The notes beneath the pieces are model-generated. The model searched no databases. It was given only the letters and a program-made list of their open reading frames with translations, and was not told the DNA's origin. The translations under genes were made by a program, and so were the position numbers. A DNA stretch of 21,083 bases, counting the filler, from Parachlamydiales bacterium (GTDB lineage Bacteria; Chlamydiota; Chlamydiia; Chlamydiales; Parachlamydiaceae), in assembly GCA_020051075.1 (NCBI GenBank). It is 2 parts of 2 records of this genome, joined end to end, with 100 filler letters (N's around TTAATTAATTAA, not from the genome) between each part and the next. Parts side by side here need not be neighbours in the genome. Positions count along the whole stretch, not along the records: positions 1 to 13,660 come from JAGVJP010000071.1; 1 more part is not named here. One strand, written 5' to 3'. Within the stretch, counting starts at the first letter, position 1; every line of letters starts with the position of its first letter. Positions 3,760-21,073 of this stretch are shown here, piece by piece.

Positions 3760-5076
3760 GTGATCTCAGTCGCTGTTTATGATACGAAATCTTATGATCG
3801 TCAATATCTTGCGCGCAATCCCGAAAGCAAAAATATTACATGGCAGTTCTTTGATTTTCATTTAAATGACAAAACCGCAATGACAGCCAAAGGAACACAA
3901 GCGGTGTGTGTATTTGTGAATGGTGACGACTCCCTCGCGTAAACGCGAAGGCTTCTAGGGCTTTTACAACCCATGCTATCTCGCCCGAGAGCAATATTTG
4001 TCCTAGTTTTTTTCTTTAAGCTTTGGGATTGATGTCTATTAGGTTTGAACACTGAACAGAACCTTACTAGGGAACCCTTAGCCAACCTATAGTGTTTTAC
4101 ACTTAGAGGATTTGCTAAGTAACCGAATACACTTTTCAGATAGCGAGGTTGCTTCAAAGAGCAAGTAGAAGTAGAGTAACAAATAGGCGCATTTCATCCC
4201 AGTCTTAAAAAACTGGGTTTTCATGCGTCCATGGATAAAATAGACGGCGCATGTTTAGAACAACTTTCTCAATTGGGGATCAAGCTCATTCTCTTGCGTT
4301 GTGCAGGTTATAATAATGTTGACCTTGTTGCAGCTAAATCTTTTAATATAACCATCACTCGTGTACCTGCCTATTCACCTCATGCAGTAGCTGAACATGC
4401 ATTTGGATTGTTCTTATGCCTAAATCGGAAAATTCATCGTGCTTATCATCGCGTCCGTGAGCAAAATTTTTCATTAAATGGTTTGCTAGGTTTTGATATT
4501 GAAGGAAAAACAATAGGCATTATCGGAACTGGCAAAATAGGGAAAGTAACAGCTCAAATTGCAAAAGGATTTGAAGTTAAGGTTATTGCATACGATATCT
4601 GTCCTTCTACAGAATTGACAATGACATTTGGGATTCAGTACGTGGATTTACCAACATTGTTTTCGCAAAGCGATATTATTTCCTTACATGCCCCGCTATT
4701 GCCGAATACTTATCGTATGATAAATGCCGCAGCTATTCAGCAAATGAAACAGGGGGTTATTATCATTAATACCAGTCGTGGAAAAGTCATTGAAACGCAA
4801 GCTTTGATTCAAGGATTGAAATCAGGCCATATTGGTGGTGTGGCCTTGGATGTATACGAGGAGGAAGAAAATGTATTTTTTGAAGATTTTTCGGATAAAA
4901 TTTTGCTAGATGATGAATTATCCAGGCTGCTCACATTTCCAAATGTCCTTATTACTGCCCATCAAGGTTTTTTTACTCATGAATCTCTAACAGAAATCGC
5001 TAGGGTAACAATAGAGAATATTCTCCGCCTTGCAAAAAATGAGCCTTTCTTAGCAGAAACGACTCTGACATCCTGA
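3760..5076 (+). pseudogene. ldhA: D-lactate dehydrogenase (2-hydroxyacid dehydrogenase) interrupted by a 312-bp insertion
   Basis: AGGAGG RBS before GTG 3760. Removing 3923-4234 restores ...AVCVFVN-DKIDG... and a 334-aa ORF with LRCAGYNNVD, PAYSPHAVAEH, GTGKIG, INTSRG, DVYEEE and TAHQGFFT. Confidence 0.9.
3923..4234 (-). mobile_element. Non-autonomous IS200/IS605 derivative (PATE-like mini element, 312 bp)
   Basis: Both ends are homologous to the full IS at 8441-10070: GTGAC..CCTCGCG-TAAA-CGCGAAGGCTTCTAGGG at one end and hairpin CCCAGT..ACTGGG-TTTT..GCGTCC at the other. It abuts ATAAA (TTTAT on minus) with no target duplication and has no tnpA or tnpB. Confidence 0.9.
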
Positions 5077-5116: not shown

Positions 5117-5155
5117 GAGGTTAAGAGTGAATGCCTGTTTTTCTAAAGGAAATAT

Positions 5156-5668
5156 ATGATAAATGTAATTAGAGCTTTTTTTATATTCAGTTCATTATTA
5201 TTCATATATCCTTTGGCAGGAGAATCAAATGAAAAAACTTCTTCAAAGATCGAACATCCAAAAACGGTCCTCGATGAAGTATTGGAAAATCCCTCTTTAA
5301 GCACTCTGGCAAAAATTATCGTTAAGACTAATATTGTCGACATTTTAGAAAGCCAAGGTCCTTTTACTCTGTTTGCTCCCTCAAATGAAGCATTTGCAAA
5401 GTTATCTCCTGGAACCTTGGAAGACTGGCTTAAACCGAGCAATAAAGAAAAACTAACGGCTATTTTAAAATTTCACATAGTCTTGGGTAAAATGACCTTG
5501 GAGGAACTGAAAAAAAATAAAGGATTGATGACTCTTGAAGGCCAGCATGTTAGTATAAAATTCGATAACAACAAAGTGACCATTAACAATGCAGCTGTGG
5601 TCAGATCTAATCTCGAATATCCCAATGGTATCGTCTATATCATCGATCAAATCCTCATTCCAAAATGA
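5156..5668 (+). CDS. Fasciclin (FAS1) domain protein with N-terminal signal/anchor
   Basis: [23 protein letters not shown] and [13 protein letters not shown] motifs. ATGA overlap with copA. Confidence 0.9.
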
Positions 5669-7923
5669 CAGTCAACTCATCTGCAGAATCTAATATTTCA
5701 AAGAACGACATTTACACTTGCCCCATGCACCCTGAAATCAAACAAAATAAACCAGGAATATGCCCAAAATGTGGGATGACACTAGAAAAGATCCCAACAC
5801 CATCTTCGCATAAAGTGATCTATACTTGTCCTATGCATCATGAGATTCAGCAAGATCATCCAGGTCTTTGTCCAATTTGTGGAATGACTTTAGAGCCAAA
5901 AGAAGCTACAGCAGAAGTTGATGATTCCGAATATCGAGATATGCAGCGCAGATTTTGGATCGGAGCTGTTTTAACGATTCCTGTCTTGATACTAGCTACA
6001 AGCAATATGTTTCCATTTTTAAAACTAGAAAGCGTTGTGTCAGATCCTGTTTCTCGATGGATTCAATTTGTCATTAGTACACCTATCGTGCTTTGGTCGG
6101 GATGGCCATTTTTTGAAAAAGCCTGGTATTCTTTAGTTAATCGCTCTCTCAACATGTTCTCTTTGATTGCTTTAGGTGTCGGAGCGGCCTATTTTTACAG
6201 TGCCATTGCTGTTGTATTTCCTAACTTGTTTCCTGATTCCTTTAAAGAAAAGGGAGAGCTTTTCGTCTATTTTGAAGCAGCTTCTGTGATTACTGTTCTC
6301 GTTATCCTTGGTCAAGTATTAGAACTCAAAGCGAAAAGCCAGACAAGCCAAGCCATTAAAGCCTTACTTGGTCGAGCTGCTAAAACAGCTCATCTTCTAG
6401 TCAATGGCCAAGAACAAGAAGTTTCTATTGATCAAGTAAAAGTGGGAGATATATTAAGAGTAAAGCCTGGTGAGAAGATTCCCGTTGATGGAGTTGTAAC
6501 TGAAGGCTCGAGCTTCGTCGATGAATCCATGATTACGGGCGAACCCATCCCTGTTGAAAAGAAAGCTGAAGACAATGTGACTGGAAGTACAATTAATCAG
6601 ACAGGCAGCTTCTTAATGGAAGCAGAGCGAGTTGGTAGTGAAACCCTGCTAGCCAGAATTGTGCAAATGGTTTCAGAAGCTCAAAGAAGCAAAGCGCCTA
6701 TTCAAAAGCTTGCCGACACAATTTCTGGATATTTTGTCCCTGTTGTCGTTTTAGTTGCGATTATCACATTTATCGTTTGGGCTTCGATTGGGCCTGAGCC
6801 ACGTTTTGTTTTTGCATTAGTTAATGCTGTCGCTGTATTGATTATTGCTTGTCCATGCGCACTTGGCTTGGCAACGCCAATGTCAATCATGGTCGGAGTA
6901 GGACGAGGCGCTGAAATGGGAGTGCTCATTAAAAATGCTGAGGCTTTAGAGCGACTGGAAAAAGTCAATACTGTGATGATGGATAAAACAGGGACGCTCA
7001 CAGAAGGAAAACCTAGAATAACGCAGATTGTAGCTTCCTCTGATTGGCAAGAAAATGATCTTTTAAGATTAGCCGCTTCCGTAGAAAAAAATAGTGAACA
7101 TCCTCTTGCCTTAGCTATTGTACAAGGAGCCCAGGAAAGAAGTTTGACTATCCCAGAAGTCGATCAATTTAACTCAGTTACAGGTGGGGGAGTCACAGGT
7201 ATTGTGGAAGGCAAAAAGGTGTTTGTAGGTAAGCCGAATTTAATGGAAGAAAACCATATCACTGGAATTGCAAGCCTACAGGCTCAAGCAAAAGAAGCCC
7301 AAGAACAGGCTCAGACAGCCATCTTTGTGGCGATTGATGGGAAAGCCATAGGATTTATTGTGGTCGCCGATCCAATTAAAGCATCTACTTCAAAAGCGAT
7401 AGAGGATTTGCATCAACTTGGTATAAAGGTCATCATGTTGACGGGGGATAATGAATACACAGCTAAGGCCGTGGCCAAAAAGTTGAATATTGATGAAGTT
7501 CATGCAGGGGTTAATCCAAAAGATAAAAACATCTTAGTTCAGCAACTCAAGAATGAAAAACAAATTGTAGCGATGGCAGGAGATGGAATTAACGATTCAC
7601 CAGCTCTTGCTGCCGCAGATGTAGGGATTGCCATGGGAACAGGAACTGATGTGGCAATGGAAAGTGCTGGTGTAACTTTAGTTAAAGGAGACCTCAATGG
7701 TATTGTGCGAGCGATTACCTTGAGTCGAGCCACAATGCGCAATATTAGACAAAATCTCTTCTTTGCTTTTATCTATAATTTGGCAGGAATTCCTATCGCT
7801 GCCGGCATCCTGTTTCCATTGACAGGCCTTCTTTTAAATCCAATTATTGCAAGTGCTGCCATGGCTTTCAGTTCTGTTTCTGTCATTTTGAACGCACTTA
7901 GGCTTAATAAAGTAAAAACTTAA
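5665..7923 (+). CDS. copA: Cu(I)-translocating P1B-type ATPase with two N-terminal YTCPMH metal-binding domains
   Basis: YTCPMH..CPxCGM twice, [31 protein letters not shown], and the YN and MAFSS transmembrane ligands. Confidence 0.93.
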
Positions 7924-8253: not shown

Positions 8254-8440
8254 TTATCCGCCCAGTCGAGGGATATATGCGGGTGTTTTGGCAGCATAGG
8301 CTTCATATTCCTTTCCAAACTCGGCATACATGTCACTCTCTTCAATTTTAGCAAGCCGAACATACATGATGACTAAAATGGGAAACATGATAAGAGTCAA
8401 TATAGTAGGCCATTGAAGGAGAAAACCGAACATGATCATG
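8254..8440 (-). pseudogene. C-terminal fragment of an isoprenylcysteine carboxylmethyltransferase-family membrane protein
   Basis: MIMFGFLLQWPTILTLIMFPILVIMYVRLAKIEE..FGKEYEAY..TPAYIP. Cut exactly at the IS right end. Confidence 0.8.
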
Positions 8441-8600
8441 GTGACTACTCCCTCGCCTAAAGGCGAAGGCTTCTAGGGGTTATCCCCAGGCCATCTAGTC
8501 CGAGGGCCAAAATATTTTGTGCTGCGTTGAGATCCCTGCTGGTTTGATATCCGCAACGAGCACAGACGTGAGATCTTTCCGAGAGCTCTTTAAGCTCACG
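8421..8600 (-). ncRNA. Predicted TnpB omega-RNA (right-end scaffold plus ~20-nt flank-derived guide CAUGAUCAUGUUCGGUUUUC); 5' boundary approximate
   Basis: Established TnpB biology: the scaffold overlaps the tnpB 3' end and right end, and the guide is the downstream flank. Confidence 0.6.
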
Positions 8601-9578
8601 ATGGCCGCATCTGCTGCAATCTTGTGTCGTATAGGCAGGGTTTACCAATCCTATCTTCCTACCAGCTTCTTCCGCTTTGTAGGAGAGGTATCGGCAAAAC
8701 TGATTCCAACTCACATCGGCAATACTCTTTGCAAAAGAAGAATTGGCTATCATCTCTTTAATTGCCAGATCCTCTACGCAAATGTACTGATACTCATTCA
8801 CTATCTTTTTAGATTCTTTATGACAAAAGTCTTTTCTTCGGTTTCTGATTCGCTCATGAATCTTTGCAATGGCTTTACCCTTTTTGCGTCTTTCAGGAGT
8901 TCCCTTGGCAAGCTTGGCGCATTGCCTCTGAGTCTTAGCTAAAGCCTTTTCTGCCTGCTTGAAAAATCGAGGATTTTCAATCTCTCGTCCATCAGAGAAC
9001 GTGGCAAACTGCTTCAACCCCATATCGATACCTATCGATTTGTCAGCGGAAGGCATAGGCCGAACATCCACTTCACAAGAAAAAGAGACATCCCAACTAC
9101 CAGTTGCATTCTTCTTTAAAGTGCAGGTTTTGATCGTACCCTCGATAGGACGATGATATAGAATACGCAAACGTCCCACTTTGGACAGTTTTAATTCATT
9201 CCCCTCAAGGTTAAAGCCGCTTTGGGGATAGCAAAAGCTATTGTAGCGATGGGTTCCTCTGAATCGGGGAAATCCTGATTTCTGCCCCTGCTTGCACCTT
9301 CTGAAAAATCCATTAAATGCCTTATCCAGCCTGTCAACCACATTCTGAAGGACTTGAGAGTGAACCTTCTCCAACCCTGGACGTTCTATTTTCAATTCTG
9401 GTAAGAACATGAGCTGCTGGATCTTAGTCAGGGAAATTTCCAGTTCATCGTAAGCCAGAATTCTCTGGGATAGCAGCTCGTTATAGAGCCATCGGCATTC
9501 CTGCAGCTGCTCATCTAAAAGGCGAGCTTGCTTCTTGGTGGTTTTGAGGCGAAAGTGAAAGGACTTCCTAACAATCAT
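8457..9578 (-). CDS. tnpB: RNA-guided endonuclease TnpB
   Basis: N-terminal HTH, GFPRFR, RuvC residues in GIDMG / VEDL / RDLNAA, and zinc finger CSRC..CARC. Confidence 0.95.
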   Translation of the reverse strand: MIVRKSFHFRLKTTKKQARLLDEQLQECRWLYNELLSQRILAYDELEISLTKIQQLMFLPELKIERPGLEKVHSQVLQNVVDRLDKAFNGFFRRCKQGQKSGFPRFRGTHRYNSFCYPQSGFNLEGNELKLSKVGRLRILYHRPIEGTIKTCTLKKNATGSWDVSFSCEVDVRPMPSADKSIGIDMGLKQFATFSDGREIENPRFFKQAEKALAKTQRQCAKLAKGTPERRKKGKAIAKIHERIRNRRKDFCHKESKKIVNEYQYICVEDLAIKEMIANSSFAKSIADVSWNQFCRYLSYKAEEAGRKIGLVNPAYTTQDCSRCGHRELKELSERSHVCARCGYQTSRDLNAAQNILALGLDGLGITPRSLRL

Positions 9579-9601
9579 GCGGCCATGTTATCATTTGGTC
9601 T

Positions 9602-10021
9602 ATGAATGAGTCAATTTCTTTAAGAAGAGGAAGAACATGTGTTTTTCTTATGCATGTACATTTGGTCTTTGTAACAAAATACAGACGCAAAATATTCACT
9701 AAACTGATATTACAGGAATTGAGAGAGATTTTTCAAAGTGTTTGTCGAGATTTTGAATCCACACTTGTAGAATTTGAAGGAGAAGGTGATCATGTGCATC
9801 TATTGATTGAATACCCTCCAAAAGTAGCTGTGTCCAAATTAGTTAACAGCCTTAAGGGAGTCTCTTCTCGTCTTATCAGAAAGCAAAATTATCCCACTAT
9901 TCAAAAGGCATTATGGGGAGGCAACCTCTGGTCACCCAGTTATTTTGCTGGAGCTTGCGGAGGTGCACCGCTATCTATTATTCGTCAATACATTGAACAA
10001 CAGCAAACTCCTAGCGATTAG
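9602..10021 (+). CDS. tnpA: IS200/IS605 HUH (Y1) transposase TnpA
   Basis: HLVFVTKYRR, DHVHLL (HUH), LKGVSSR, LWSPSYF and catalytic Tyr in RQYIEQQ. Confidence 0.95.
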   Translation: MNESISLRRGRTCVFLMHVHLVFVTKYRRKIFTKLILQELREIFQSVCRDFESTLVEFEGEGDHVHLLIEYPPKVAVSKLVNSLKGVSSRLIRKQNYPTIQKALWGGNLWSPSYFAGACGGAPLSIIRQYIEQQQTPSD

Positions 10022-10070
10022 GCGCGATTCATCTCGGCCCTAAAAGGCCGAGTTTTCTCGCGTCCGGGGG

Positions 10071-10104: not shown

Positions 10105-10350
10105 TTAATGGTGGTGTGTTTCTTGGTTTTCTTTGCCCTTATCATCACTATCGCCTCCATGATGATGTCCGTGGCCATGAAAGATATGAATTAATGGACA
10201 GGCAAGTAATAGCAACCAAGGCAATATTCCCAAAAGATGAGCCGCATGTTCTGTGATGAGAAAAAAGCCAATCACGACTAAAAATCCAAATAATACTATA
10301 TAAGTTGGAGATGCCCAAGTTAACTTCGAAGGATGATCAGAATGGTTCAT
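10105..10350 (-). CDS. DUF2933-family small membrane protein with His-rich tail (copper-cluster associated)
   Basis: TEHAAHLLGILPWLLLLACPLIHIFHGHGHHHGG signature and GAGG RBS. Confidence 0.85.
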   Translation of the reverse strand: MNHSDHPSKLTWASPTYIVLFGFLVVIGFFLITEHAAHLLGILPWLLLLACPLIHIFHGHGHHHGGDSDDKGKENQETHHH

Positions 10351-11620: not shown

Positions 11621-11926
11621 TCATTCAAATCTTTTAATTAATTCGCGAATTTCATCGATTTTTTTCCTCTGTTCATCATGATTTTTAGAAAGACAGGCCT
11701 TAGATACACAAGAGGACAAATGTGTATCTAAAATAAGCAATTCAATGCTTTTAATAGCTGAGCGTATAGCGCGAAGCTGGGTTAGGATTTCAGGGCAATA
11801 TCTTCCATCTTCGATCATTTTTTTGATCCCCTCTATTTGTCCACTTACTCTATTTAGATGAGACAATTGCTTATGGTGTGAAGGATATTGAGATGGTTGA
11901 TTGTGACAACACGATTTATCCGGCAT
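11621..11926 (-). CDS. csoR: CsoR/RcnR-family metal-sensing repressor
   Basis: LNRVSGQIEGIKKMIEDGRYCPEILTQLRA..HLSSC gives the Cys-His-Cys Cu(I) ligand set. Confidence 0.88.
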   Translation of the reverse strand: MPDKSCCHNQPSQYPSHHKQLSHLNRVSGQIEGIKKMIEDGRYCPEILTQLRAIRSAIKSIELLILDTHLSSCVSKACLSKNHDEQRKKIDEIRELIKRFE

Positions 11927-12485: not shown

Positions 12486-12583
12486 ACACCATCGTTTGAT
12501 AAAAAACTTTGTGTTGTTTTATCACCTTGACAATATCGAAATTCAAAGATATACCGATAATAGAACGAATTAAAGGAAAATTT

Positions 12584-13105
12584 ATGATTAATGCGGTTAT
12601 GGTCTTTTTAATATTAAGTTCATTCTTATTTATATATCCTTTAGCAGGAAATTCGAATGAAATTTCCGCTATAGTTGAACATCAAAAAACGATCTTAGAA
12701 GAAATACGACAGAATCCCTCTTTGAGCACCCTGGCAAAAATTATCTCTAATACCTACCTTGTCGATGTTTTAGAAAGCGAAGGTCCCTTTACACTATTTG
12801 CTCCTTCTAATGAAGCGTTTGCTAAATTAGCTCCTGGGACTTTAGATGATTGGCTTAAACCGAACAATAAAGAAATACTTACGAAAATTTTAGAATACCA
12901 TATAGCCTTAGGAAAAATAACTTTGGAAGATTTGAAAAAAAATAGTGGATTAATGACTCTCAGTGGCCAACATGTTAGTATAAAAACCGATAACAACAAC
13001 ATGACAGTTAACAATGTTGATTTGACCAAATCTAATTTTGAATATTCTAATGGTATTGTCTACATCATCGATCAAGTGCTAGTTCCAAAAATGACTGTCA
13101 AATAG
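12584..13105 (+). CDS. Second fasciclin (FAS1) domain protein, paralog of 5156-5668
   Basis: Same TAAAGGAAA RBS context and MIN start, with colinear similarity throughout. ATG 12584 preferred over the ORF-track start. Confidence 0.88.
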   Translation: MINAVMVFLILSSFLFIYPLAGNSNEISAIVEHQKTILEEIRQNPSLSTLAKIISNTYLVDVLESEGPFTLFAPSNEAFAKLAPGTLDDWLKPNNKEILTKILEYHIALGKITLEDLKKNSGLMTLSGQHVSIKTDNNNMTVNNVDLTKSNFEYSNGIVYIIDQVLVPKMTVK

Positions 13106-13660: not shown

Positions 13661-13760
13661 NNNNNNNNNNNNNNNNNNNNNNNNNNNNNNNNNNNNNNNN
13701 NNNNTTAATTAATTAANNNNNNNNNNNNNNNNNNNNNNNNNNNNNNNNNNNNNNNNNNNN
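13661..13760. other. Artificial contig linker / assembly gap
   Basis: 44 N + TTAATTAATTAA (stops in all six frames) + 44 N. Confidence 0.97.
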
Positions 13761-14016: not shown

Positions 14017-14058
14017 AATGCGTATGCCTTCCCATCCTGCTATCTGTGAGGCAGAAAC

Positions 14059-15555
14059 TCAGGGTTGAATGGCTTGAATGAATCTGTTGGACTTACTGCC
14101 CAAAAGATCATAATCTTTGACGATCTCTTCGAAAATCATTTTGAATTCAAGAACAGTCATCCCAGTCGTTCCTTCAGGCCGTTCACCAATTCTCTTCTTA
14201 AATTCAAAGATAAAGAAATTCATCACCCGCTTTTTCAAGCCAGGATCCGAAGGTGTTTTGAATCCGGTACGTTCAGGCTCATCCCTATGCTTTTGAATAA
14301 TCCTTCCCGCTTGACTTAGAGGTCCTAGAATGATGAATGTTTGCTCGGCCGTCGGATTAGTGATAAAAAATTGAACAAACTCTCTGAGTTCCTCGCTTGT
14401 ATAAGCACAATTGTCTGCAAAATGACATGCAGCGTACATTTCACCATCGTTGTTTTGGAATACTCGCTCCATTACTCGTGTTTGATCCTGGTTTGGAAAT
14501 CGAGTCATCATATTTCTAATCATGTGCTCATAGCGAGGGATGATTGCAATAAGCTCTTTCTTGGTAGATAGTCTCTTGAATTCATCGATGTAATAAACAA
14601 ATAGTTTCTTCATATTATCATCCAGATATGTACCTTCTAGATTCTGGCGTCCTGGGAGAAGGTTTGGGGATGATAGAAGCCTTGTAATATGAGGAGCTCT
14701 TTCCTGCAGCAGTTTTAAAACAACACCTTTACGATCCTTATTTTTCGTAGCCTCCAAACCAATGAAGAGATGATTCAATGTTTCCCGTGTACAATGAAGA
14801 GCATTTTCAAGAACATTGTATTGTGCATCCGTTAAGATGTTACTTGCAGTTGGTTGTTGTAAAGTCGGCAACAGTGAAAGTCCTAACGGTTTGCCTGGAC
14901 CACCATTTAAAGAACTCGGAAGAGTCGGAAGAGTCGGTGTGGGAGGATTTACAGTGAGAATCGGCTGCGTAGGGAATTCATCTTCAAATTGTAGAAAATT
15001 GAATGGTTCGTCATCCGGCTGTGCAGGGGATGCATTGTCATCTAAAAATTCGTAAGGAAAGTCGTCGGACTCAGGTGTTCTTGGTGGAAGGAGGAGAGAT
15101 CGTTCACTTGAACCTAGAGACGGATTCAGAGGAACGCCTAGTCCATCACCATTGGGTCGAGGAGGGTTGACTGTTGAATCTTCAATCACGGGCAATGGTG
15201 AAGAACGCCATTGACTCTTGTCATAAATATACCTCAAAATCATCAGAGCTGTCAAAGTCACGATAACAGCCAAGGAGGCGACTCTGCTAAGTCGGGCACC
15301 CAATAAGATTTTTACCTGAATCATATTAAGCAAGAGTGTAAGAGCTCCAAAACCTAGGACCTTTCTTGGCATTCGCTTGCTTTCATCGACAGGTTGAAAA
15401 CGATTTTCAAGTCGATCAATCAACGCAGAAATCGGGTGATAACAGACGATGTTTATAACAGTTGACACTCCAAGTCGACCGATATCATTGAAGTTGAATC
15501 CCCCTCTAAGGAATGATTCTTGCTGGGCCATTGATTGTTTTACAGATCCTAACAT
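14059..15555 (-). CDS. Hypothetical protein, Inc-like (bilobed hydrophobic segment, Pro-rich linker, helical C-domain)
   Basis: 498-aa ORF with hydrophobic hairpin VLGFGALTLLL..VASLAVIVTLTALMILRYIY. Paralog of the next ORF. Confidence 0.7.
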   Translation of the reverse strand: MLGSVKQSMAQQESFLRGGFNFNDIGRLGVSTVINIVCYHPISALIDRLENRFQPVDESKRMPRKVLGFGALTLLLNMIQVKILLGARLSRVASLAVIVTLTALMILRYIYDKSQWRSSPLPVIEDSTVNPPRPNGDGLGVPLNPSLGSSERSLLLPPRTPESDDFPYEFLDDNASPAQPDDEPFNFLQFEDEFPTQPILTVNPPTPTLPTLPSSLNGGPGKPLGLSLLPTLQQPTASNILTDAQYNVLENALHCTRETLNHLFIGLEATKNKDRKGVVLKLLQERAPHITRLLSSPNLLPGRQNLEGTYLDDNMKKLFVYYIDEFKRLSTKKELIAIIPRYEHMIRNMMTRFPNQDQTRVMERVFQNNDGEMYAACHFADNCAYTSEELREFVQFFITNPTAEQTFIILGPLSQAGRIIQKHRDEPERTGFKTPSDPGLKKRVMNFFIFEFKKRIGERPEGTTGMTVLEFKMIFEEIVKDYDLLGSKSNRFIQAIQP

Positions 15556-15662
15556 TTTTAATCCTAAGAATATTATTAATAATAAAAGAATATCGTATCA
15601 TATTACAAAATTATTTTCAACAACAATTATTTACAATTGATACAATTGTGATTGAAAGAAAC

Positions 15663-17171
15663 TCAGGGTTGAATGGCTAAGATGAATCTGTAGGATTTAC
15701 CTTGCAAAAGCTTATACTCTTCAACTATGTCTGAGAAAATCTCTTTGAACTCAAGAACAGTCATCTCACGTACAGGACGTTCATATAATCTAGCCTTAAA
15801 AAGTGACTTAATGAAATTCATCACCCGATTTTTCAAGCCTGGATCCAAAGGGGTTTTTCCCAGACGTTCAGGTTCTTCCTGATGCTTTTGGACCATTCTT
15901 CCCGCTTGATGCAGAAGAAATAAGATGGTGGATGCTTGCTCAGGCGTAGGATTAGGAATAAACCATCGAACAAACTCTCTGAGTTCCTCGCTTGAATAGG
16001 CACAATTGTCTGCAAAATGACATGCGGCATAGACTTCGTCATCGTTGTCATTGAATAGTCGATGCATCAAACGATTTTGGTTCTCGTTTGGAAATCGGCG
16101 CATCATCCCTTCAATCCAATATTTAAATCTATTAGGAATGATAGGATTATTATTTGAATTTGAAAAGGGACGCATGGATCTTCCGATTTTAGAAGAGTAA
16201 CGGATGAATTCTTCGATGTAGTAATCAAATAATTTCTTCATATTGTCATCCAGATATGGACCTGCTCGATTCTGGCCTTCCGGAAGAAAATCTCTGAGCG
16301 AAAGTAAGTGTGTGAAATTTACTGCTTGACGACGCAACTCTTTGAAAACAATTGCTTTAAGCACAGGATCTCGATGCGCACTTAAACCAGTAAAGAGAAA
16401 ATTCAGTGTTTCACGTCTACAATGAAGGGTATTTTCAAGAATACGATATTGATCCTCAGTTAAAATGTTCTCTGCTATGGGTTTCTGGAAATTCGGCAAC
16501 AGTGAAAACTTTAAAGGCTGGCCTTGACTCGTATTTAAATGATTTAGGAGAGGTGGATTTGATGATGATGATGCAGTGACAGAGCGATTTGGTACAGGAT
16601 TTGCTGGTCGTGGAGCAGTAGGAATCGGCGGGTAACGATTGTGACTATTTTGGTTTCGATCTGGTCCCAAGCCAGGATTATTCCTTTCTCGGGGAGGATT
16701 AGGGTTGGTGACATGACCGACATCTTGTCCACGATTGGAAGTTGGGAGAGATGGATTGACAGTTGCCTCTTGAGGTCTGGGTGATGGTGAAGAAACCCCT
16801 TTAGTCTTATTATACGCAATTTCTCCATGCAGCTGAACTATATACGCCAAAGTCATCAGAGCTGTCAAAGTCACAATAACTGCTACGTAGGCAACGATGC
16901 CAAGTCGAGCGCCGAATAAGATTTTTACCTGAACAAGATTAAGCAGGATTGTAAGGCTTGAAAAAGCGATCACTTTTCTAGAAAATTTTTTGCTTTCCTC
17001 TATCGTTTGAAGACGATTTTCTAACCGATCAATCAACGAAGAAATCGGGTGATAACAGAGGATATTTATAGAAGACGCCAATCCAAAACGACCGAGGTTA
17101 TTGTAGTTTACCCCTCCTCTAAGAAATGATCCTTGAGATGGGAGAATCGACTGTTGTACAGCTCCTAACAT
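15663..17171 (-). CDS. Hypothetical protein, Inc-like tandem paralog
   Basis: 502-aa ORF sharing the N-terminus (FLRGG..CYHPIS.LIDRLENR) and C-domain (YAACHFADNCAY.SEELREFV..DPGLK.RVMNF..AIQP). Confidence 0.7.
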   Translation of the reverse strand: MLGAVQQSILPSQGSFLRGGVNYNNLGRFGLASSINILCYHPISSLIDRLENRLQTIEESKKFSRKVIAFSSLTILLNLVQVKILFGARLGIVAYVAVIVTLTALMTLAYIVQLHGEIAYNKTKGVSSPSPRPQEATVNPSLPTSNRGQDVGHVTNPNPPRERNNPGLGPDRNQNSHNRYPPIPTAPRPANPVPNRSVTASSSSNPPLLNHLNTSQGQPLKFSLLPNFQKPIAENILTEDQYRILENTLHCRRETLNFLFTGLSAHRDPVLKAIVFKELRRQAVNFTHLLSLRDFLPEGQNRAGPYLDDNMKKLFDYYIEEFIRYSSKIGRSMRPFSNSNNNPIIPNRFKYWIEGMMRRFPNENQNRLMHRLFNDNDDEVYAACHFADNCAYSSEELREFVRWFIPNPTPEQASTILFLLHQAGRMVQKHQEEPERLGKTPLDPGLKNRVMNFIKSLFKARLYERPVREMTVLEFKEIFSDIVEEYKLLQGKSYRFILAIQP

Positions 17172-17405
17172 TTTTTACCCTAAGAGTATTATAAATTATA
17201 ATCTAAATAATTTATCAATTTTATCGCATTATTTGAATTGTTTTCAATAAAAAAACCAATAGATTATGTTGAAAAGAATCTGGGGCATAGAATAAAAAAT
17301 TGTTTATTAACTTGAAAAGCCAACGGTGCACATGCTGCTAACTATTTGTCGCTAGCTTTTATTGGGAAAATCGTTACACTATACCCTTTTTTAAAGATAC
17401 ATGAT

Positions 17406-20880: not shown

Positions 20881-21073
20881 AGCCCTTCAGGCTGCGATAT
20901 GAACGCTGAACCTACCCAGGGCGTTGCCCTGGGCTGTTGCAGTTTTGAGCCCTTCGGGCTATAGCAACAAACAGTCCGAAGGACTGAAACTGCAACAGCC
21001 CAGGGCAACGCCCTTACCATTTCCCATTTTTTCAGCGCGAAGCGTTTGGAGTGCGGAAGTCCTCTTCCGCTTT
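20881..21073. repeat. Cluster of REP-like palindromes (REPIN-like inverted pair)
   Basis: Perfect 28-bp IR AGGGCGTTGCCCTGGGCTGTTGCAGTTT (20918-20945 / 20987-21014). It encloses hairpins AGCCCTTCGGGCT and CAGTCCGAAGGACTG. Further hairpins at 20881-20893 and GCGGAAG-TCCT-CTTCCGC near 21052-21070. Confidence 0.8.

Follow-up and report, generated by a model that had tools for sequence, protein, structure and literature searches.

Results

The locus and its IS605-family elements

The window, by which we mean the whole 21,083-nt stretch of DNA that we analyzed, joins two contigs at an N run (13661-13760) with TTAATTAA in its middle. A gene resembling those of D-2-hydroxyacid (D-lactate) dehydrogenases (3760-5076, plus strand), whose C-terminal part matches D-lactate dehydrogenase models at sub-cut-off scores, is interrupted in this window by a gene-less, 312-bp mini-element of the IS605 family (3923-4234, minus strand). 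We refer to this kind of mini as type a. Our analysis confirmed the element, which had been proposed in an initial annotation, and placed it antisense to the dehydrogenase-like host gene, of which other strains carry an intact allele. Excision of positions 3923-4234 in silico yielded a stop-free ORF of 336 aa. In all four public runs examined (two of them apparently a single data set), contigs with the uninterrupted allele skip exactly 312 nt, and the insertion is therefore real, recent, and precise. The three RNA runs examined showed the empty allele only and so do not bear on the 312-bp element.

The left end (LE; 4185-4234, minus strand) matches the other LEs of the genome at 74 to 78% and includes a subterminal hairpin (4198-4217) that covaries among minis. 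Immediately outside it lies the TAM, TTTAT (4235-4239, minus strand), which is identical to that of the full-length IS described below and precedes most type-a homologs as well. The element sits 3′ of this TAM with no target duplication and terminates in GTCAC. Like PATEs, it consists of an LE and a right end (RE) with subterminal hairpins and has no protein gene; no ORF kept across its homologs was found. The flank beyond the RE (3903-3922, minus strand) is the predicted guide, and its target, following the model of Meers et al., would be the empty insertion site. A second site with TTTAT and an 8-nt seed for this guide is absent from the genome.

The assembly contains one copy of the 312-bp element. 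Three more IS605-type LEs (TTTAT, then GGACGC) stand at contig ends (C26:40-98, C26:21799-21888, and C20:7808-7863), where the RE was not assembled; the genome probably holds additional collapsed copies or minis. Plasmid and phage collections gave no match to the 312-bp element; a G398 element was matched there at its right end only (about 330-404 of 411).

An autonomous IS605 element occupies positions 8441-10070 (minus strand), with tnpB at 8457-9578 on the minus strand and tnpA at 9602-10021 on the plus strand. It scored above cut-off with both NF040570 (316 bits) and NF033573 (148 bits), and the RuvC residues D185/E269/D349 of its TnpB are intact. Its tnpA and tnpB are the only ones found in the assembly (single matches in the genome), and this IS is likely the helper of the 312-bp mini. 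By blastn, the mini matches the full IS at its two ends only, and its middle was matched to the IS by neither nhmmer nor a covariance model, in agreement with the earlier claim that the middle has no counterpart there.

The full IS seems to remove the start of a small ORF (8254-8439). This ORF and its surroundings (10105-10350, 11621-11926, and 5665-7923) presumably form a heavy-metal cluster with a P-type ATPase, a CsoR-like repressor, and small membrane proteins. Elsewhere in the window, DNA identities of 76 to 86% mark a paralog pair (5145-5534 and 12573-12959), which we take to be fasciclin-like proteins, and a tandem pair (14053-15585 and 15657-17201), presumably proline-rich proteins of ~500 aa with N-terminal hydrophobic stretches. 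After groEL, a perfect 28-bp inverted repeat is found (20918-21014), with Rfam microRNA matches far under gathering scores.

The omegaRNA end of the minis

The mini ends in an omegaRNA core and RE (3923-3999, minus strand) that is 79% identical to the full-IS end over 80 nt. It contains an RE hairpin (3933-3950) and a pseudoknot of GGCGA (3981-3985) with TCGTC (3925-3929), which joins a loop just downstream of an AAATATT motif to the final bases of the mini. Among 18 distinct ends, this pseudoknot forms with 5/5 pairs in 15 to 16 and with 4/5 in 2, one end reaching 5/5 only by a wobble counting that is prone to mismatches. The pairing is made by GGCGA/TCGTC in the 312-bp element, by GAAGA/TCTTC, GATGA/TCATC, GGCTA/TAGTC, and GGCAA/TTGTC in other minis, and by GACTA/TAGTC and GATTG/CAGTC in full elements. 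These variants include compensatory changes, and over four helices the omega end is 93% paired. Judged by sequence comparison, the omega end of the minis is under structural selection.

Mini 3′ ends also match tnpB ends of the same genome, at 93 to 96% in G090 and G485 and at 83% in G492. Since the omega core keeps a pseudoknot of the TnpB/Cas12 type, the minis are probably still loaded by TnpB in trans; minis without a use for TnpB would be unlikely to retain it. In a type-a subgroup (L023, L027, L031, L052, and L057), the RE-proximal hairpin holds 45 to 125 extra structured bases, and the pseudoknot is kept.

A covarying, two-domain middle

The initial annotation had described the middle as a structured, boxA-led RNA, and every string that it quoted sits where it had been placed. 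Folded singly, the 181-nt middle is on neither strand more stable than shuffled versions of itself (z -0.13; 88/200 shuffles as good), and single-sequence folding was weak over the middles of 10 elements (z +1.7 to -2.8). The structure originally drawn fared poorly in alignment. Its three longer stems and pseudoknot were 66.7% paired on 11 homologous middles, which 52/500 shuffles equaled; this test left out the AGGG/CCCT stem, whose loop of 2 nt is too short for all 4 bp to form. The AGGTT/AACCT stem was 45.5% paired across the same middles. The CTTAGC..GCTAAG hairpin does appear in the single-sequence minimum free energy fold, but the stems as drawn show no covariation. An alternative fold was 89.2% paired on the 11 aligned middles with 16/32 pairs changed on both sides, and only 0-1/500 shuffles were as good on four of five measures (141/500 on the fifth, further pair types). 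These fold statistics are overstated, since shuffling takes no account of how the sequences are related, and most of the sequences tested had also served to derive the structure. The middle is, as far as alignment can tell, a conserved, covarying RNA, so that the description as structured holds for a fold other than the one drawn.

This fold divides the middle into a leader domain of ~63 nt, D1, followed by a second domain, D2. The initial annotation had overlooked this division; the 5′ domain is a portable leader common to minis of different TnpB families. Upstream of D1 lies a candidate extended -10 promoter, TGTTACTCT (4173-4181, minus strand). TGnTAnnnT is found 57 to 61 nt upstream of the GGTT motif in 3/15 elements, and by eye plain TAnnnT hexamers are similarly placed in others; a sigma-70 consensus scan made no call at positions 4173-4181. 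Next comes P1 (4149-4164, minus strand), a small 5′ hairpin, TTGC-TCTTTGAA-GCAA, which homologs replace with hairpins of different sequence. The boxA-like string TGCTCTTTGAA, one mismatch from the consensus to which it had been compared, is the loop and stem of P1. It stands ~20 nt inside the segment and not at its start, and boxA-like 10-mers with one mismatch allowed number 7 in the window versus 5.06 expected. A boxA antitermination site, which would be a conserved, single-stranded TGCTCTTTAA(CA) near the transcript start, was rejected because the string occurs in 1/15 elements and there within a hairpin.

D1 itself (4083-4145, minus strand) was found by our model R2 at E 3.9e-14, this copy having been in the training set. 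It is built of two stems, Pa (AGTG/CACT, 4130-4133 with 4091-4094) and Pb (TACTTAG/CTAAGTG, 4115-4121 with 4100-4106), with invariant unpaired bases GGUU, AAUCCU in the loop, and GUAAA(A). In the model built from 18 sequences, 88% of cells are paired and 9/14 pairs show double changes. The linker AGGTTGGCTAAGGGTT (4073-4088, minus strand) offers the D1 loop two candidate pseudoknot partners, AGG (4086-4088) and AGGGTT (4073-4078). The proximal pairing is 83% paired with one double-change pair, and the distal pairing is 95.5% paired with zero double changes. D2 (4002-4071, minus strand) is restricted to type a and has a near-invariant A-rich strand (4008-4030). Its helix Pc (CCTAGT/ACTAGG, 4066-4071 with 4002-4007) is 97% paired with 4/6 pairs double-changed, homologs having CAAGT/ACTTG or AAGGT/ACCTT; Pd (TCTGTT/AATAGA, 4055-4060 with 4035-4040) is 83% paired with 5/9 double-changed, as in TCTGTG/CACAGA and GTGGTT/AACCAC. 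No part of the middle looks like a second RE or guide, contrary to the suggestion that it might be a second guide scaffold.

The Rfam 15 covariance models gave no match over the 312-bp element at E up to 5, consistent with the earlier suggestion of an uncharacterized ncRNA. At E up to 10, 11 homolog loci returned only weak matches far under gathering scores, of which two fell on element ends. IscB/HEARO on the plus strand, a group I intron, twister, pistol, hatchet, HDV-like, and preQ1 RNAs were considered as candidates and dropped, as none had an Rfam match.

Two readings of D1 other than as a stabilizing leader bear on these structural data. In one, D1 belongs to an undescribed kind of small self-cleaving ribozyme, which would cut the precursor and so make the omegaRNA 5′ end without TnpB. 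A size of ~60 nt, two covarying stems, the invariant unpaired GGUU/AAUCCU/GUAAA, a possible loop pseudoknot, and a location 5′ of an RNA that is normally 5′-processed would all suit a ribozyme, as would the independence of D1 from the clade of the partner protein (see below), and we take its topology to be loosely twister-like. Nevertheless, with E allowed up to 5-10, neither the window nor the 11 homolog loci matched an Rfam ribozyme model, the pseudoknot is without clear covariation, TnpB trims unaided, and the cassette seems to own a promoter. We consider self-cleavage of this kind improbable.

The other is that D1 is a regulatory leader, whether a host-protein site, an antiterminator that targets RNA polymerase or Rho, or a ligand switch, that tunes omegaRNA output. 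D1 directly follows a promoter-like site, and CTTRG can pair with either a near or a far CYAAG, with an A-U/G-C change common to both as in a switch. The far CYAAG, however, exists in type a only and its helix is 71% paired, no terminator follows D1, and the boxA string is not conserved. Among the genomes searched, D1 was confined to Chlamydiota, as a host-factor site would be, but the search outside the phylum (0/151 genomes of the class of G504) scored 35 candidates per genome and was run without a positive control. A regulatory role of this sort seems to us distinctly unlikely.

Distribution and portability of D1

A DNA search for the middle over 400 scored genomes of the phylum matched 11 at E 0.001, its own included, and three of the weakest matches among these were not minis. 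Homologs of the middle thus exist in several other families of the phylum. Pattern scans found true loci in 13/16 cases in species genomes and 6/12 in metagenomes, and chance matches (3/16 and 6/12, respectively) were removed before counting. A D1-only model matched 5/103, 2/129, and 2/73 genomes in three families; with G357, G369, and G398, D1 is present in 12 Chlamydiota genomes from six families at up to 16 copies per genome. Model R2 was scored with a candidate filter on about 300 Chlamydiota and 151 outside genomes, and among 18 new D1-pattern loci, only the two in G398 passed it. Every complete D1 case is a gene-less, LE-to-RE element, some copies being cut by contig ends or other insertions, and 32 tnpB-bearing loci gave no D1 match below E 0.22. 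In viral contigs, the type-a pattern had 0 matches; the D1 pattern had 43 loci, whose model E values never fell below 0.011 and which we treated as chance.

In the held-out genomes G398 (2 copies) and G492 (16 copies with the TAM TTGAA), both D1 stems persist with new pairs, namely TCGCGGA/TCCGCGG and TCGTAGA/TCTACGG in Pb and AGTC/GACT in Pa. Thirteen copies in G090 match only the first ~65 positions of a 152-position model. They form two families that have one promoter-P1-D1 block in common and two different LEs and omega ends; D1 is 95% identical between the families, and the last 90 nt agree at 61%, no more than the background level. Overall, at least four unrelated kinds of omegaRNA end, associated with three different TAMs, are found behind D1, which lies 183 to 308 nt from the RE: type a in the 312-bp element and in G417/G474, G357, G363, G369, and G237; type b in G090 and G485; type c in G090; and type d in G112, G398, and G492. 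Because its structure and unpaired bases are conserved despite swapped LEs, TAMs, and omega ends, D1 is independent of any one TnpA/TnpB clade.

Near-identical mini copies with different flanks number 16 in G492 and 7 in G417, and tnpA was found in 4/5 carrier genomes tested as well as in that of the 312-bp element. Mobilization of the 312-bp mini by TnpA in trans is a supported prediction. With homologs, covariation, and a precise empty allele all found, the earlier proposal of a mobile, protein-free RNA module was borne out.

Several loci depart from the common layout. In L025 of G140 (1192-1615), a type-a mini retains D2 and the omega core, with P1-D1 replaced by a different palindrome that is long and imperfect. 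A short LE-omega mini without D1 and D2 lies near position 1500 of L008 (G004), and in L143 (G112), a mini without D1 has tnpA 5′ codons fused to tnpB 3′ codons. Other mobile DNA frequently strikes minis: a MITE with TACCAAACGCAA ends lies in L058 (about 410-590), one G398 copy contains a transposase-like ORF (L171, about 1720), and palindromic inserts replace the left end in two G492 copies (L239 and L243).

The distribution also bears on whether the middle is neutral cargo, kept by common descent and structured at the level of single-stranded DNA or by chance. Such cargo would account for the weak folding energies, the small number of independent lineages (about 8-10), the many decaying copies in G090, and the patchy occurrence (5/103, 2/129, and 2/73 genomes). 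It would not readily explain the compensatory changes that recur in four helices, unpaired bases that stay invariant next to freely diverging LE-proximal sequence, or the retention of D1 while both ends are swapped, and we regard it as highly improbable.

Origin of the middle

D1 has no match in 33 tnpB or 15 tnpA coding sequences, and a check for decayed coding sequence found no detectable tnpB or tnpA similarity in D1 or in the middle of the 312-bp element. A by-eye idea that tnpB N-terminal (REC) codons persist was dropped after nhmmer gave a null result and a frameshift-aware profile left 9/9 cores in the shuffle range, with a clear positive control. Similarly, a likeness of D1 to the HUH codons of the window's tnpA (E 0.22) was not repeated in 15 tnpA genes. 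P1 and D1 of the 312-bp element scored against tnpB at a level reached by 1/100 shuffles, and the match ends at base 22, within the variable pre-P1 region, and is absent in homologs.

Traces of tnpB do occur near D1. The hairpin after D1 in type d derives from tnpB zinc-finger codons (24/27 bases, 89%, E 1.9e-4), and the type-a middle of L057 is colinear with the 3′ ends of clade tnpB genes, beating 100/100 shuffles (z 3.2), mainly via P1. These traces would fit a middle that is, as a whole, an enlarged TnpB-bound scaffold grown from tnpB 3′ codons, in which D1 and D2 remain part of the RNP; processed omegaRNAs span 79 to 466 nt in the published text available to us, against only ~77 nt for the type-a core by itself. 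Against such a scaffold, no fewer than four unrelated omega cores share the same D1 (183 to 308 nt from the RE), 14/15 middles, including that of the 312-bp element (z -0.6), have no colinear alignment with clade tnpB, and D1 is unmatched in the tnpB and tnpA coding sequences. We therefore think an enlarged scaffold improbable. An old origin from tnpB 3′ codons may nonetheless lie behind the middle, but D1 now behaves as a non-coding unit.

Discussion

We consider it somewhat better than an even bet that the mini is a stand-alone omegaRNA expression cassette, that is, a PATE-like mini-IS605, whose dedicated 5′ leader stabilizes or matures an untranslated omegaRNA. Such a cassette would move by its TnpA-type ends, as the precise 312-bp insertion after TTTAT and the 7 to 16 copies per genome reached by relatives suggest. 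The candidate promoter just inside the left end would drive one untranslated RNA in the order P1-D1-D2-omega core-guide. TnpB made elsewhere would load onto the omega core and cut the empty site after excision, so that the mini is retained. In the text available from PMC10278001, a normal omegaRNA is excised by TnpB from translated mRNA; an untranslated, stand-alone precursor would be without the protection of a translated message. D1 may substitute for what translated tnpB mRNA gives a normal omegaRNA. Its compact fold would keep the untranslated precursor from being degraded or terminated prematurely and present it for 5′ trimming, and the protected precursor could then persist to capture TnpB in trans. 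D2 would serve as a type-specific spacer or scaffold extension.

The indifference of D1 to its partner proteins makes it most likely that this domain acts alone or through a host factor. The invariant unpaired bases are not required by a plain stabilizer and hint at catalysis or binding. Further observations count against the leader reading: single sequences fold weakly, minis without D1 exist (L025 of G140 and L008 of G004), the omega core of the 312-bp element is only 79% like that of the resident IS, and in G357 (86% complete), which has three minis, no tnpA or tnpB was found. A bolder proposal, unlikely in our estimate, is that D1 represents a new functional RNA class, either a self-cleaving ribozyme or a maturation element that binds a host factor, which protein-free IS605 parasites graft onto any TnpB omegaRNA as a universal leader for trans guides.

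In the literature, we found no description of a shared non-coding leader on gene-less omegaRNA minis, and supplementary omegaRNA alignments may include one. Gene-less omegaRNA minis are already published; the portable D1 leader, an RNA motif without an Rfam model, is the new part. Found only in gene-less versions and moving between TnpB families, D1 is testable as a 60-nt RNA with natural compensatory variants. Should it prove to stabilize or mature guides, it would be a candidate 5′ cassette for TnpB editors, which at present depend on processing elements added to their guides; self-cleavage would make it a new ribozyme class.

IStrons are defined by a group I core from the LE, a terminal G, and an orientation sense to the host gene. 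The 312-bp element has no Rfam group I match, ends in TCAC and so lacks the terminal G, and is antisense to its host gene; in addition, D1 lies about 90 to 140 nt inside the left end. What the minis have in common with IStrons (group I intron in IS605/IS607), as far as the available text describes them, is extra structured RNA in the left part of the element (10.1101/2023.11.20.567912).

The omega end resembles those of ISDra2 and AmaTnpB in its end pseudoknot, RE hairpin, and dispensable, trimmed 5′ region, according to the parts of PMC10097598 and PMC10278001 available to us. The loop-to-end pseudoknot is as in the ISDra2 TnpB structure, and the same excerpts report that omegaRNA 5′ regions are dispensable for cleavage and are trimmed by TnpB (PMC10097598, PMC10278001). 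In those systems, the 5′ region is tnpB coding sequence, whereas here it is a covarying, non-coding fold.

Standalone OMEGA omegaRNAs, as described in PMC10691335 with reference to the 2021 OMEGA paper, are likewise mobilized, effector-less loci in effector-bearing genomes; there, they were shown to work in trans, and the role of effector-less omegaRNA loci was called unknown. They are compatible copies of a parent scaffold, whereas the minis described here are mosaics of an LE, a common leader, and different omega ends. The minis are also close to PATEs, which often encode omegaRNAs used in trans (Meers et al., 10.1101/2023.03.14.532601). As set out in the accessible text of that study, they too keep the LE and RE, are gene-less and TAM-adjacent, and have an RE omegaRNA that needs TnpB and TnpA in trans. 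Unlike PATEs as described there, the present minis place 105 to 230 nt of structured, non-tnpB RNA before the omega core, including a domain common to several TnpB families.
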